This document shows positions 1,570 through 10,178 of a DNA stretch of 10,178 nt, one piece after another. The stretch's first letter is position 1. Each line of letters begins with the position of its first letter. The DNA comes from an uncultured delta proteobacterium (GTDB taxonomy: Bacteria; Desulfobacterota; Binatia; UBA9968). The notes beneath the pieces are model-generated. The model was not told the DNA's origin. It saw only the letters and a program-made list of their open reading frames with translations, and did not search any database. Made by a program: the position numbers and the translations under genes. The stretch is from the NCBI GenBank assembly GCA_963840855.1, contig CAWJBB010000089.1, positions 1 to 10,178 of the forward strand, written 5' to 3'.

Positions 1570-3727
1570 TCAATTATCCTCTATCGGAAAGTCCTCGACT
1601 TTCCGCACCCGCACGGCGCAGGCCTTGAGCTCCGGCTGGCGCGAAACCGGATCGCGGGCGCTGATGGTCAGATTATTCGCCGCCTTGAAAAAACCCTGCT
1701 CGCGGCTCCAGTGGAACGGCAGAAAGCATGTGCCCTGGACTATTTCTTCAGTGACTCGGCACTGCGCCATCACCTTGCCGCGGCGCGAAAGGATTTCGAC
1801 AAAGTCCGCGTCCTGGATGCCGTATCGGCGCGCGTCCGCGCGATTAATCTCCAGGATCGGGTCTGGAGCACTTTTGCGCAGTGCTTCGTTTTTTCCGGTC
1901 CGCGTCAACGTATGCCAGTGATATTTCGACCGGCCGGTCGTCAGCGTCAGAGGATAATCGCGATCCGGACCTTCGACGGGTTCCACGTGATCCACCGCGA
2001 TGAAGTTTGCTTTGCCGCTCGCCGTCGGAAATTTTCCGCGGTCATACAACCGCTCCGTTCCACCGGGTTTTTTCTTTGAACAAGGCCATTGCAGCGGCCC
2101 CTTTTCCTTGAGCCGGCCGGTAGCTCATGCCCGAGCAGTCGCACAAAGTATTCTGCGTAAGCGCGGCGTACTCCGTGAAAATGGTCTCAGTGGAGTCATA
2201 AGAAAAAGCCGCATCGAATCCCATCGCATGGGCGAAGCGGGCGATAATTTGCCAGTCCGGCAACGCTTCACCGGGCGGGTCCACGAGCTGCGGCATATAA
2301 GTGACCCGCCGTTCGGAATTGGTCATAACGCCCTCTTTTTCGCTCCACTGCGCGGCGGGCAGCAAAACATGGGCAAGACGGCTGGTGGCGGTCGGATGAT
2401 AGGCGTCTTGGACTACCACCAGCTCCGCTTGGCGCAGCGCCTTTTCGATGAGGTCGGTCTCCGGCACAGAGGCCGCGGGATTGGTGCAAAGAATCCAGAG
2501 CGCCTTAAGTTTACCCGCGGCGAGCGCCTCGAACTGTTCCAATGCCGGCAGTCCCGGTTCAGGAGAGATACTGGCGCAAGGCACACCCCAGAAACGCTCG
2601 ACTTCTTGACGATGCTTCGAGTTCTCAACGCTCCGATAACCCGGCAGCATATGGGCAAGCCCGCCCACTTCCCTGCCGCCCATCGCGTTGGGCTGGCCGG
2701 TTAGCGAAAAAGGGCCGCAGCCGGGCTTGCCGATCTTGCCGGTGGCCAGATGCAGATTGTGGATGGCGTTGTTTTTATGCACGCCGGCGCTGCTCTGGTT
2801 GACGCCCATGCTCCAGAGACTCATGGCCGTTTTCGCCATGCCGAATATCAGCGCCGCTTCGACGATCAAACATTCGGGCACGCCGCAGATTTTCTCGGCT
2901 AGCTTTGGCGGATAGCGCTTGATCCTGTCCAGCAGCGCGGCAAAGCCTTTCGTTTGCCGAGCGATAAACTGCCGGTCGATCAGATTTTCGTCGAGCAAAA
3001 CGTAAAGCATGCTATTGAGCAGCGCAATGTCGCTGCCGGGGCGAATCGGCAAATGGAGATCGGCGAAATCCGCGGTCTCGGTGCGCCGGGGATCGACGGC
3101 GATAATCGTCACGCGCTTGGGATCGTCGTTCTTGCGCGCCTTAATGCGTTTGAAAATCACCGGATGACAATCGGCGGTGTTGCTGCCGATCAGCAACAGG
3201 CAGTTGGCTTCATCGATGTCGGCATACGAACCCGGCGGCCCGTCCGAACCCAGCGATGTTTGATACCCCACCACCGCCGAGGACATGCAGAGACGCGAAT
3301 TGGTATCGAAGTTGTTCGTGCCGATGAAACCTTTGGCGAGCTTGTTGGCGATGTAATATTCCTCCGTCGTCAGCTGCCCTGAGCCATAAAAAGCCACAGC
3401 ATCGGGTCCGTGCTCGGCGATGATCTCGCGAAAGCGCCGGCCGAGATAATTCATTGTCTCGTCCCATGACGCGCGCTTGAACGGGCCTTCCTGGCAGGAG
3501 CGGATTTGCGGATAGAGCAAGCGGTCTGGCGTTCTGAGTATTTCAGGCAGATAGACGGCTTTGAGGCAAAGATCGCCCAAACTGGACGGATGATCCGGAT
3601 CGCCCTTGATCTTGTGCACGGCGCCGTCTTTGATCCCGGCGAGAAGCCCGCATCCCACGCCGCAGTAGGGGCAGTACGATTTGCTCCAGCGCTCCACCGC
3701 GTTCTCGTTATTCGTTTCCGCTCTCAC
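1570..3727 (-). CDS. narB: Assimilatory molybdopterin nitrate reductase, NarB-like, ~718 aa after correcting one frameshift
   Basis: GTG at 3727 with a GAGG SD. [4Fe-4S] motif CPYCGVGC-x27-C, Mo-ligand region NSRLCMSS, LTGQPNAMGGRE, and C-terminal LTTGR...W...TRT and DPVSRQPELK. Removing one base at ~2117-2120 gives SY-GRLKEKGPLQWPC...TERLYDRGKF, joining ORFs 2042..3727 and 1570..2049. No Tat signal (so not NapA) and no C-terminal BFD [2Fe-2S] domain. Confidence 0.9.
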
Positions 3728-6391: not shown

Positions 6392-7666
6392 CTAGGCGAG
6401 ATTGGTGACCGCAAATTTCTTCACATACTCTTCGGGATTGCTTGGATCGAACTCGACCTTGTCGAAAAGCGTTTCCTTCTTCATATCTTCTTTCGGTACA
6501 GCGACGCCCATCTCTTTGCGCGACTTCGCGGTAAAGCTCTGGGCGGAGCACCTTGTTGACGATACCGGCGTAATCCGGCGCGCCCTTGACCATGCCCCAG
6601 CGGCGAAACTGGCTGATCCACCACACGCCGTGCGACTTCCATGGGAAATTGGTATTGCGGTCGAAGAACGTCATATAGTTCGGATCTTTTTCCTTGCGGC
6701 CGTCGCCGTAGTCGTAATCGCCGAGCATGCGGCCCAAGATGACTTCTTTCTGCGTGTTGATGTACTGCGGCTTTGAGACCACCTCGGCCATGTGGGGGCG
6801 ATTTTCCAGCTTATCGATATACTGGCTCGACTCGGTCACGGCTCGGAGAATCGCCTTGACGGTTTTTGGATTCTTGTCGGCGAACTCTAGCGTGAAGGCC
6901 AGCACTTTCTCCGGATGGTCTTTCCAGATTTGCTGCGTTGTCACCGCCGTGTAACCGATGCCGTCCGCGATGGCGCGCGCGTTCCAGGGCTCGCCGACGC
7001 AGAATCCGTCCATTTTGTCGACTTTCATGTTCGCGACCATTTGTGGCGGCGGAATCGTGATCAAGGTCACATCTTTGTCCGGGTTGATGCCGCCGGCGGC
7101 GAGCCAGTAGCGCGTCCACATGGCGTGGGTACCGGGCGGAAACGTCATCGCAAAGGTCATCGGCTTGCCGGCTTTTTTGGCCTCGTCGACGATCGGCTTC
7201 AATGCCTGCGGCGTGCGTATTCCTTTGGCTTTTAAATCATTCTCCAGCGTAATCGCCTGGCCGTTGCGATTGAGCACGAACGGAATGATCATCGGTTTTA
7301 CCGGCGAGCCCAACAGCCCCATGCTCGATGAAAACGGCATGCCGAAAAGCATGTGGGTCGCCTGGTTTTCGCCCAACGTCAGCTTGTCGCGAATCGCCGC
7401 CCACGACGCTTCCTTTGAAATTATCGATTCGATGCCATGTTTCTTGAAGAGCCCGAGCTCATGGGCCATGACGATGGATGAACAGTCGGTCAGGGCGATG
7501 ATGCCAAAGCGAATATTTTTCGTCTCGGGACCATCCGCCGCATAAGCGCCGCCAATCCAGCCTTTCGGCATGCCGACCGAGCAGCAACCCCAACGAACTA
7601 GCCGTCGATAGTTTGATAAACTTGCGCCGCGTCAGCGCATTTGTTTGAGCCGCTTTTCTTTGCCAC
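6392..7666 (-). CDS. nrtA: Nitrate/nitrite ABC transporter substrate-binding protein (NrtA/CmpA family) with Tat signal, ~423 aa after three corrections
   Basis: GTG at 7666 lies 9 nt after GGAGGG. The reconstructed N-terminus is MAKKSGSNNALTRRKFIKLSTASSLGLLLGGMPKGWIGGAYA|ADGPE (extra bases at ~7641 and ~7575). Motifs SWAAIRD, NGQAI, TFPPGTH, IPPPQMV, CVGEPWN and HPEK. Removing the base at 6518 gives EVAKEMG...FDPSNPEEYVKKFAVTNLA with TAG at 6392-6394. Confidence 0.9.
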
Positions 7667-7671
7667 GATTT

Positions 7672-7975
7672 CTATCCCTCCACCATGAAAATTGATCGCC
7701 TTGGCGAACGAGCTTGAATACTTTGACTTTGAGCTTGGGGTTGGTCGAGCACGACCCGGTCTTAAGGTCGAACTTATAGCCGTGCAGCGGGCAGACGACT
7801 TCGCCCTCTTCGATCGAACCCATCGCGAGCTGCCCGCCTGCATGCGGGCAGGTGTTTTGAATCGCGCACAGTTGTCCCTGATGTTTAAAGACAGCCACCT
7901 CGTCATTTGTTCATGCGAGCCAATTTCGCCGAGCCTTCGTCGATCTCGTTCGGATTGATCATGGGGCCTATCGAC
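7672..7975 (-). other. Rieske [2Fe-2S] ferredoxin-type (NirD-like) domain, either the C-terminal domain of NirA or a separate small gene from ATG 7962
   Basis: NTCPHAGG and VCPLHGYKFDLKTG give complete CxH...CxxH ligands. Upstream INPNEIDEGSAKLARMN-NDEVAVF joins on removing one T at 7906-7908. The likely true end is ...MVEG* at TAG 7672-7674, overlapping the nrtA SD region. Confidence 0.85.
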
Positions 7976-9538
7976 TCTTTCGTCGCTGCAGGACGGGCGG
8001 AGGTTCCAGTTGCTCTGTGGAATTTTCCGCAGTTGCTGGCGCATCGCCTTGAATGCACCGTGACTGAGCGAGCCCAGCGCAGGACATTGCGGCAGATCGT
8101 TGCATGGCACATCGTCCATAATCTTAACCGGAAGATTGGGCTCCGGCCGCGTGGATCCGCCGACATAAACATCCACCGCCTCCTCAACTTGGCCATCGAT
8201 CTTGATGTTCTTGCCGACAGGCCGATGTCCGCCGCCGCTTGGTTCGCGCAGCTGCCGGGCAACCTGACCAATGGATGGCAACCGGCTTGGTCTTGCCGAG
8301 TAGTTGCTTCCAGAGCGCGGGCGGTTTTGAGCGCCTGCATCCTTTGGTCTCGATCAACGCGAAGTGGCAGTAGTCCATGCCCGTGCAACTCACCAGGCCG
8401 CGCATGACCTCTGAAGGATCGTAGCGGAGTTCCTGGAGCAACGGCTCATCTGGTGAGATCGCCGATCTTGCTGTCGGGCACGTCGGGAATGATGAGATTT
8501 TGCCCGACGGTTAGACGGATATTGCCACTGCCATAATTCTCGGCCAGAACGCGCGATTTGCAAACATCTGTCCGGCCGGTGATGCGCCCCACAGGCACAG
8601 CGAGGCCGACATAGTTGAGTCCGGCCTGTATCTGGCGCAACACGCCGAGATGGTCGGTGTGCTCGCTCGTGCCGCTCATCTTTGCCGGCGGTGCGCAAGG
8701 GAATGATCAGCGCGAAGCTCCAGCTCTCTGCGAAATTTCTCTACTCCCCAGTCGTCGATAAGAAAGGCAAGTCGCGCCTTCGTGCGCGGCTCCCGAGAGC
8801 CATGATCGCGAAAAATAAAAACGATGTGACTGCAGATCGCCGCCGCCTCTTCCGCCTGACAAAGAGATCCAGCGGCGAGGCCATCCGATATCCGCCGGAG
8901 CCCATCTTGCCGCCAACGGCGACGTTGAATCCTTTCACGCTCGCGCCTTCGATCTCCTTTGTCGCGGGCGTTAACGCGATGTCCTGCGACTCAGCGTGCG
9001 AGCAATTCTCCTTGCAGGCGGTTATGGTTACGTTGAACTTGCGCGGGAGATTCGTGTACTCCCTGTTGCCAACAAACATGTCGGTAAACTGCCGCGCCAC
9101 CGGCGAGGCGTCGAATAGCTCACCAGGCGTAAGTCCCGCCACAGGGCAACCGACTACGTTGCGGATATTGTCCATGCCGGTCTGGAGCGAGACCAAATCT
9201 ACGGCTTCCAGCCGCCGCCAGATCTCGGGCACATGCTCGATTTTGAACCAGCGCAATTGTATTTGCTGGCGGGTGGTGATATCAGCGAAGCCTTTGCCGA
9301 ACTCTTCACTGATTTGCGCGATGGTGCGAAACTGCTCGGCGCTGCTCATGCCGTTGGGCATGCGCACGCGCATCATGAAATTTCCAGGCGTCTGGCGGCG
9401 AAAAAAGACCCCGGCCCATTTGAGCCGCTCTTTGTCGCCCTCGGTGATGGCTTCCCAACCTTCCTTGGCATAGCGCGGAACATCAGAAAGAATATCGAGC
9501 CCGTCTTTTTCCTTCTTATATTCTTCGATCTTGTTCAT
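7672..9538 (-). CDS. nirA: Ferredoxin-nitrite reductase (siroheme/[4Fe-4S]), probably fused to a C-terminal Rieske domain, ~620 aa, heavily frameshifted
   Basis: N-terminus MNKIEEYKKEKDGL...LKWAG...FMMRVRMPNG, then TTRQQIQLR, DNIRN, NLPRKFN and (shifted frame) IFRDHGSREPRTKARLAFLIDDWGVEKFR. Also VPVGR, IRLTVGQN, and cluster ligands CTGMDYC and HWSGCPAxCAN. About 16 indels between 7690 and 8860 must be corrected. Confidence 0.85.
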
Positions 9539-9681: not shown

Positions 9682-10178
9682 CTATCCATTGGGCGCCATC
9701 TTGAGCTCAAACCGACGCGCCCTGGGCTCGTTTCCACCACCCGCCACCGGGGGACCTACCAACACCGGACAGGAGAGTCGCCTGGCAATCCTGAGAATTT
9801 TGAGCGCCGCCAGATCCGGAAACACAAATCGCTTGCGCAGCTTCAGAACCAGCAGATCGATATGTTCTTCGCGAATGACCGCGGATATCTCCCTGACCCG
9901 ACTACCGATACGAATGAGTTTGGTAATCCTGTCGTGGCTCGCGGTACCTACCGTCCTGTCGACGAAATTCCACAAATCAAGGCTTCTTTCCCGCCGCAGA
10001 ACGTCCATGGGGAAATTTCGCGAGTCGTTTAACTGCAATGGGAAACCCTCCACCGGGGCTATACAAGACAATAGAAAATCGCTTTCCGCGCACACGTCGA
10101 TGACGTGCAAAGCGATAAGCTTCGCCTTCGTTTCGCGGACGAGAGACGCCGCGTCACGCAGGGCAGCGGCCGATTCAT
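9682..10178 (-). CDS. Universal stress protein (USP family), 5' end outside the window
   Basis: The frame is open to the window edge: ESAAALRDAASLVRETKAKLIALHVID...IRIGSRVREISAVIREEHIDLLVL...ARRLSCPVLV. This is the USP pattern (S..AL..A..L....A.L..LHV; G...I...E..DLLV; CPVLV). TAG at 9682-9684. Confidence 0.85.
   Translation of the reverse strand, partial: ESAAALRDAASLVRETKAKLIALHVIDVCAESDFLLSCIAPVEGFPLQLNDSRNFPMDVLRRERSLDLWNFVDRTVGTASHDRITKLIRIGSRVREISAVIREEHIDLLVLKLRKRFVFPDLAALKILRIARRLSCPVLVGPPVAGGGNEPRARRFELKMAPNG

Follow-up and report, generated by a model that had tools for sequence, protein, structure and literature searches.

Textbooks divide assimilatory nitrite reduction between the ferredoxin-dependent enzyme NirA and the NAD(P)H-dependent NirBD, and the role of NirD is unclear. 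The NirA of plants and cyanobacteria (spinach, 2akj; tobacco, 3b0g) is a two-repeat hemoprotein of ~500 residues, with four cluster Cys residues and an assimilatory context. NirD (TIGR02378 / PF13806; 3c0d) is a Rieske fold of ~100 residues tied to a siroheme nitrite reductase, and the E. coli NirD does not have the full Cys/His ligands. The Pyr_redox_2-type module is found in NirB and is also the partner of the Rieske ferredoxins of dioxygenases. Here I describe a gene, called nirA::Rieske, in which a NirA core appears to be continued by a NirD-like Rieske [2Fe-2S] domain. It lies on the minus strand of a 10,178-nucleotide stretch of DNA (the window; contig CAWJBB010000089.1) from an uncultured Binatia bacterium. 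The gene spans 7672..9538, from the start codon ATG 9538 to the stop codon TAG 7674-7672, and has ~617 codons when it is read through its frame breaks.

Is this a NirA, a NirD, or something else? The core shares all the listed features of plant and cyanobacterial NirA. The fused enzyme adds a C-terminal linker and a Rieske domain, ~115 residues together, and its hosts are non-phototrophic uncultured lineages. Against the spinach nitrite reductase 2akj, the core gave E = 5e-113 by sequence and E = 9e-40 by Foldseek (TM 0.73 on the target; model pLDDT 71). The AlphaFold2 model of P0002, a public fused protein of 617 aa, has a pLDDT of 71.3 and a pTM of 0.65. The top NCBIfam family is NF007125 by far. 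P0002 (577.4 bits) and the unfused P0009 (578.2 bits) both lie below its cut-off of 594 bits, and this deficit characterizes the clade and is not due to the fusion.

The Rieske part scores 43 bits with PF13806, above the cut-off of 27. Its best NCBIfam family is the NirD family TIGR02378 (53-59.4 bits; cut-off 74.65), just ahead of the dioxygenase ferredoxin models, and its fold matches are dioxygenase Rieske ferredoxins and NirD 3c0d (TM 0.72-0.77; 0.73 for 3c0d). In contrast to the E. coli NirD, the window Rieske has full Cys/His ligands. It is fused to a NirA core instead of being a free partner of NirB, and there is no NirB-type flavin module. Since NirB is absent, the fused enzyme is not a canonical NirBD member. 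With the Rieske ferredoxins of ring-hydroxylating dioxygenases (2qpz, 1fqt, 3gce, 5bok) it shares the CPH...CPxH ligands and the lack of extra disulfide Cys residues. The sequence match to 2qpz has E = 1e-8, and the fold matches to 3gce, 1fqt, and 5bok have TM 0.73-0.77. These ferredoxins are free carriers from a flavin reductase to an oxygenase, whereas the window Rieske is tethered to the core that presumably accepts its electrons; neither an oxygenase gene nor a reductase gene was found near the fused genes at the scanned loci. In the window and in its fused relatives, the ligand pattern lacks the disulfide Cys pair of bc1/b6f proteins. Read together with general knowledge of Rieske proteins, the pattern points to the low-potential ferredoxin class.

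The nearest analogue, I presume, is a cyanobacterial NirA (Plectonema/Leptolyngbya boryana) with a C-terminal ferredoxin-like extension, on which no paper was found. It would also carry a C-terminal [2Fe-2S] domain, but its plant-type ferredoxin fold and its type of host differ from those of the Rieske fusion.

The NirA core, the linker, and the Rieske domain

All features of the gene are on the minus strand. The NirA core (8017..9538) consists of two NIR_SIR_ferr / NIR_SIR repeats, as in siroheme-[4Fe-4S] hemoproteins, and its pieces were recognized by Pfam PF01077 and PF03460. The first motif of the [4Fe-4S] centre, C-x5-C (SCTGMDYC), is intact at 8367..8387. The second, C-x3-C, lies at 8248..8261 and reads GCPAGC in homologues. 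There, a one-base deletion at ~8252 falls in the Gly codon between the two Cys codons (alignment HWSGCPA/-CANQ). The window keeps all four [4Fe-4S] Cys codons despite this deletion between the last two. The core ends in the helix HGAFKAMRQQLRKIP, which is typical of the fused clade; in a 94-row alignment of fused proteins, the consensus ahead of the linker is the same as in the window. Proteins without the Rieske motif have other C-termini, such as ...VLERLVPYLSRKD, among the C-termini printed.

As the first-pass annotation noticed, the frame of the NirA C-terminus (...KIMDDVPCNDLP...HGAFKAMRQQLRKIPQ) has no stop codon; it is open down to 7598. Dropping one base at ~8017 leads to the frame of an 18-residue linker, RATGTSARPAATKESIGP, at 7963..8016. 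This second frame (8016-7906) reads RATGTSARPAATKESIGPMINPNEIDEGSAKLARMNK and then meets TGA 7905-7903. The Rieske domain occupies about 96 codons (7672..7962) in three frame segments split by indels at ~7905 and ~7691. Its core sits in the third frame (7910-7632), whose 92-aa piece (7910-7635) matches Pfam PF00355 with E = 3.8e-16 and PF13806 with E = 3.4e-11. The ligand block CPHAGGQLAMGSIEEGEVVCPLH (7782..7850) has the pattern CPH-x17-CPLH, with Cys at 7850-7848, His at 7844-7842, Cys at 7793-7791, and His at 7784-7782, and the full CxH/CxxH ligands recognized earlier are thus in place. The C-terminal residues FMVEG, followed by the stop codon, return to the linker frame. The Rieske domain is identical to that of P0002 at 77 of 97 residues, and the linker frame upstream of Met 7962 is identical at 9 of 18.

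The intact NirA N-terminus (265 aa) was used as the query of a homology search. Among 8,000 scored candidates, 4,648 proteins had E <= 0.001, and the best 120 were listed. A search for ~620-aa proteins with NIR_SIR and Rieske domains had been proposed in the first-pass annotation, and such proteins turned out to dominate: the Pfam Rieske domain (PF00355) is present in 90 of the best 120 homologues, and 88 have the full C-x-H-x17-C-x-x-H motif past residue 480, most of them being 615-626 aa in length. The closest relatives of the window gene are NirA-Rieske proteins of 615-626 aa. The Rieske piece matched 153 longer proteins, nearly all with NIR_SIR domains. In a representative library, the same piece found mostly stand-alone Rieske proteins and fragments, and only P0204 was listed with a NirA-like core and a Rieske domain; the likely reason is that fused proteins are hidden behind unfused NirA at 50% clustering. 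P0204 (662 aa) is a distant NirA/SiR-like hemoprotein whose terminal Rieske domain is 48% identical to that of the window, which suggests a second, independent hemoprotein-Rieske fusion. The second-best representative match, P0122 (362 aa), has three tandem Rieske domains.

The pairing of a Rieske domain with NirA in the absence of NirB had been regarded as unusual. The architecture is in fact abundant in public data, as the 153 longer proteins indicate. Moreover, Nitrospinia genomes encode NirA and mostly NirD too, while NirB is rare, according to passages of one article (PMC10839748). This pairing of NirA with an orphan NirD is an independent hint of an association between NirA and NirD-type proteins.

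In the alignment of 94 fused proteins (A1), the [4Fe-4S] residues C383, C389, C424, and C428 and the Rieske ligands C560, H562, C579, and H582 are invariant in all 94, and so is C593. The linker varies in length and sequence; its residues 503-520 have pLDDT below 50 in the fold model and were modelled as disordered.

To see the fusion at the level of genomes, 80 related loci were kept from one-genome-per-species contigs. At 23 of them, the NirA core and the Rieske domain are in a single ORF. At two more (L036 and L048), the NirA C-terminus and the Rieske domain share an ORF behind an upstream frameshift. Thus, 25 of the 80 loci have the NirA C-terminus and the Rieske domain in one stop-free frame, and the ligand motif CPH...CP[LI]H was found by a motif scan at all 25. 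The contigs of L016 and L017 end before the Rieske position. At the remaining 53 loci, no Rieske hit was found in the fetched locus. The motif scan of the 55 loci outside the fused set gave only five chance-like CPH...CP[LI]H matches in unrelated ORFs.

A maximum likelihood tree of 72 rows was made from 71 loci and the unbroken N-terminal part of the window gene by a quick search without bootstrap. Nine loci with short or stop-containing matches were dropped (L016, L017, L032, L036, L044, L048, L049, L050, and L061). The fused label requires one change on the tree (SH-aLRT 88). The window falls in a starred set (97) that also includes 22 fused rows; its sister is the fused L002. The fused enzymes thus make up a single clade, within which the window gene is nested.

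The fused clade was found solely in metagenome-assembled genomes in the data searched, with labels such as Binatia, 'Deltaproteobacteria', and Methylomirabilis. Some fused genes come from genomes labelled otherwise (L011, Verrucomicrobiia; L045, Chloroflexota; L030 and L046, Thermodesulfobacteriota; L018, Methylomirabilis) and nest among Binatia/'Deltaproteobacteria' sequences, indicating horizontal transfer or binning/labelling problems.

The sizes of the closest relatives, the 25 loci, the placement in the clade, and the conserved linker frame all bear out the fusion proposed by the first-pass annotation. I am highly confident in the fused architecture, and its presence in the window gene, as judged from the sequence, is well supported.

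Possible role of the Rieske domain

How might the fused enzyme work? The tethered Rieske domain would bind a [2Fe-2S] cluster and serve as the electron entry point. Its reductant would be encoded elsewhere; plausible candidates are a Pyr_redox_2-type reductase that transfers electrons from NAD(P)H to Rieske ferredoxins, and a ferredoxin. The Rieske domain would then pass single electrons to the [4Fe-4S]-siroheme centre, where nitrite would be reduced to ammonium. That nitrite is the substrate may be inferred from its genomic context, namely nrtABCD, narB, glnA, amtB, and nitrite channels. As a whole, the explanation that this is a NirA with a C-terminal NirD-like Rieske domain on a flexible 18-residue linker, acting as an electron entry module in a gene whose indels are errors, is probable. 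The relay to the siroheme centre taken by itself, with cluster binding, relay, and donor identity all inferred, is a plausible but evenly balanced proposal.

Several points weigh against the relay. Clusters of the Rieske ferredoxin type usually have a higher potential than plant-type ferredoxins, and the transfer to the [4Fe-4S]/siroheme centre could be uphill. The best score of the Rieske part stays under the NCBIfam NirD cut-off (59.4 vs 74.65). The ORFs scanned at 12 fused loci, several flanks of which were scanned in part, include no gene for a flavin reductase, ferredoxin, or flavodoxin; nor was a Pyr_redox_2 protein found in the window or among these scanned ORFs. Finally, four close unfused relatives (L001, L003, L004, and L009) have the same operon, and neither the motif scan nor tblastn found a Rieske domain in the fetched locus (up to 6 kb on each side, less at contig ends). 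Therefore, the Rieske domain is dispensable for this type of enzyme.

These four relatives favour the main rival explanation, that the Rieske domain is fused but does not relay electrons. It might be a structural or activating partner like the cluster-less E. coli NirD, or a redox or nitrogen sensor that tunes the enzyme, while electrons still come from a free ferredoxin docking on the NirA core. The core of the four relatives presumably still takes an external donor, no gene for a partner reductase was found close by at the scanned loci, and the best family of the Rieske part is NirD, whose own role is unsettled. On the other hand, the invariance of the four cluster ligands in the 94 fused proteins and their presence at all 25 fused loci speak for selection on a bound redox cluster. 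In addition, the same core is joined to a true module for electron input in a neighbouring unfused clade. I regard a role without relay as unlikely, while it is the strongest competitor of the relay.

This neighbouring clade belongs to Acidobacteria. Here, Pyr_redox_2, Rubredoxin_C, and a BFD-[2Fe-2S] domain precede the same NirA core in fused proteins of 870-1,080 aa (L021:4939-7554, L024:4462-7554, L027:4408-7554, and L033:1907-5137; in L062, only the BFD part was seen). This enzyme is like NirB, with a NirA core of two repeats at its base. Like the Rieske fusion, it is of the same NirA subfamily and has a fused electron-input module and a neighbouring narB gene, which precedes it; the fork of the tree is unresolved. 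It differs in that the module is N-terminal with its own NAD(P)H/FAD reductase and that it has no Rieske/NirD domain; no NirD gene was found nearby. Thus, the NirA subfamily has repeatedly acquired built-in electron-input modules.

The first-pass annotation had also supposed that the Rieske domain might serve NarB, which lacks a [2Fe-2S] module of its own. The Pfam domains agree with the latter point, as no [2Fe-2S] domain was found by Pfam in the narB product of the window. The supposed role fares worse: at three of the 12 scanned fused loci (L011, L018, and L045), a nitrite channel follows the gene and no narB was found in the fetched flank.

Frame breaks in the gene

As sequenced, the nirA::Rieske gene is interrupted by 13 single-base indels. 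Reading from the start of the gene, they are located at ~8854-8857, 8699-8702, 8662-8671, 8574, 8548, 8448-8451, 8339-8342, 8301-8307, 8252, 8217, 8017, 7905-7908, and 7691. A frameshift-aware alignment of P0002 with 9538-7676 has 505 identical residues of 614, 12 frame changes, and no in-frame stop codon. The protein of L019 (615 aa) is identical at 457 of 612 residues and gives 13 frame changes, of which 12 are shared with P0002 and the other is at ~7691. The two reference proteins concur on the positions to within a few bases. Ten of the 13 indels are upstream in nirA (8857-8217), and three are within 7672-8100. The first-pass annotation had assumed a single break, to be mended by removing one base at 8014. 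The site was right, since an extra base is seen at ~8014-8017 relative to all of 10 intact fused relatives, but three corrections are needed within 7672-8100 for an open fusion. In the DNA alignment with these relatives, the window has one extra base at ~8014-8017, another at ~7905-7909, and two extra bases or one missing base at ~7690-7691.

Are the breaks errors or signs of decay? Judging from the sequence, sequencing or assembly errors are the most likely cause, and the real gene is probably intact. This is because all the indels are single-base events, there is no nonsense codon, the amino acid identity ratios are ordinary, and two related loci (L036 and L048) have similar breaks in the same gene. 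The identity to P0002 is 88.6% for residues 1-228, 79.2% for residues 229-502, and 79.4% for the Rieske domain. Relative to the unbroken part, the window thus has ratios of 0.894 for the broken core and 0.896 for the Rieske domain. In 93 intact fused homologues, these ratios are 0.900 +/- 0.036 and 0.83 +/- 0.10, respectively.

The distribution of the breaks counts against errors. The indel density in nirA, where the 3' two-thirds hold all the breaks, is ~10 times that in the other six genes (13 in 1,867 nt vs 5-6 in about 7,245 nt), and uniform sequencing error fails to account for this clustering. The indels might thus be real, and the gene might be a recently inactivated pseudogene in a decaying operon for nitrate assimilation. 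Breaks occur also in nrtA (two), narB (one), the porin gene (one), and perhaps nrtD (one). None was seen in nrtB, nor in nrtC when compared with one of the two references. No shared sequence motif, methylation-like pattern, or long homopolymer was seen at the indel sites, where homopolymers are short. However, larger deletions are lacking, the first 684 nt (228 codons) of nirA are free of frame changes, and amino acid changes are not in excess of those in intact homologues. Together with the frame-broken L036 and L048, these facts make a real inactivation improbable, and the window copy is a poor, error-ridden exemplar of the fusion.

Another possibility is that there are two genes. If a base were missing at ~8014, NirA would end at TAG 7970-7968 and a separate Rieske protein of 96 codons would start at ATG 7962. 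Public Rieske proteins of 95 aa (P0350, P0353, P0356, and P0370) start exactly at the equivalent Met, which counts against the fusion; they begin with MIDPKEI..., P0350 is 85% identical, and P0353 has 22 members. It had been remarked that this start would clip the first strand of the domain. This is doubtful, since the Pfam Rieske match in P0002 begins 4-5 residues past the equivalent Met and the 95-aa proteins still score as complete Rieske domains. These short proteins may be genuine split forms or gene-caller fragments, and their contigs are of 0.6-2.5 kb, with 1.5-2.5 kb for P0350, P0353, and P0356 and 1.0-2.5 kb when P0370 is counted too. The frame that holds the TAG translates into a peptide resembling no homologue, whereas the fused frame keeps its half-identical linker, and the NirA C-terminus and the Rieske domain share one stop-free frame at all 25 Rieske-bearing loci. 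Two separate genes are therefore very improbable. A chimeric assembly was rejected as its source, since the fusion occurs in 25 separate genome records.

The operon and the meaning of the fusion

The window contains an operon for nitrate/nitrite assimilation on the minus strand, in the order of usp, nirA::Rieske, nrtABCD, narB, and porin. The universal stress protein gene (9682..10176; Pfam Usp E = 3.2e-6) is located 5' of nirA and runs past the window end. It is followed, after the fused gene, by nrtA (6395..7668), which encodes a substrate-binding protein of a nitrate/nitrite ABC transporter with a twin-arginine signal (Pfam NMT1_2 E = 4e-93). Pfam and protein alignments identified nrtB (6376-5608, intact), nrtC (5592-4753), and nrtD (4731-3735). 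The assimilatory nitrate reductase gene of the narB type (1573..3727) encodes Fe4S4, molybdopterin, and dinucleotide-binding domains, and a BBP2 porin gene lies at about 1263-39. The frame changes outside nirA are two in nrtA (~7575-7578 and 6518), none in nrtB, none or one in nrtC, and one each in nrtD, narB (~2045-2116), and the porin gene. In relatives, the nrtA start aligns with a GTG codon of the window (about 7666-7664) whose frame differs from that of the twin-arginine signal TRRKFIKLS, and the 5' end of nrtA may carry an additional indel besides those at ~7575 and 6518. A 63-aa ORF in the public protein set matches part of the window exactly, and the gene calls there are fragmented. 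An Rfam scan of the window gave no match at E <= 1, and the predicted fold of the nirA leader was not superior to that of shuffled sequences (z = -0.96).

Is the neighbourhood conserved? The window and L019 share synteny over 6.7 kb, with 76% nucleotide identity. At 12 fused loci, L019 and 11 others, the neighbouring genes were scanned; 103 ORFs came from the 11 others plus four unfused loci. DNA synteny was used instead for L015, L030, and the downstream halves of L028, L034, L039, L043, and L046. The fused loci and their closest unfused relatives (L001, L003, L004, and L009) have one common neighbourhood. Upstream are genes for AmtB/PII, GlnA, an amidotransferase, and an ANTAR response regulator, as well as STAS, metallo-beta-lactamase, or Usp genes. 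After nirA come nrtABCD, a gene for an MFS transporter or a formate/nitrite-family channel, narB, siroheme-synthesis genes, and the BBP2 porin gene. The last ORF annotated ahead of the fused gene encodes a Usp in both L034 and L039. The NasT-like ANTAR regulator upstream of nirA (L019:3864-4448) has equivalents in L001-L004, L006, L008, L011, L043, L045, and L046, and the window ends short of its position.

In the full-text literature, with subscription journals outside the coverage, no description of a NirA-Rieske fusion was found. The public annotations are automatic, either 'ferredoxin-nitrite reductase' or 'Rieske 2Fe-2S domain-containing protein', and the finding bears on the annotation of these genes. 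The fusion architecture is common in uncultured soil and groundwater bacteria. A large, monophyletic set of NirA with an attached NirD-like Rieske domain links that domain to the hemoprotein module; in neighbouring lineages, a flavin/BFD module takes its place or nothing is attached. The fusion is thereby a tractable single-polypeptide system for testing the function of NirD-type domains. As a tentative idea, it may be a 'Rosetta stone', telling that NirD-type Rieske proteins serve the siroheme hemoprotein directly as one-electron donors. If so, it would represent a third class of assimilatory nitrite reductase, in which a tethered Rieske centre, reduced by a separate NAD(P)H reductase, would take the place of free plant-type ferredoxin and of a built-in flavin module. 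Such enzymes would then be widespread among uncultured bacteria of soil and groundwater, Binatia for example. The fusion also suggests how abundant uncultured non-phototrophs may supply electrons to nitrite reduction.

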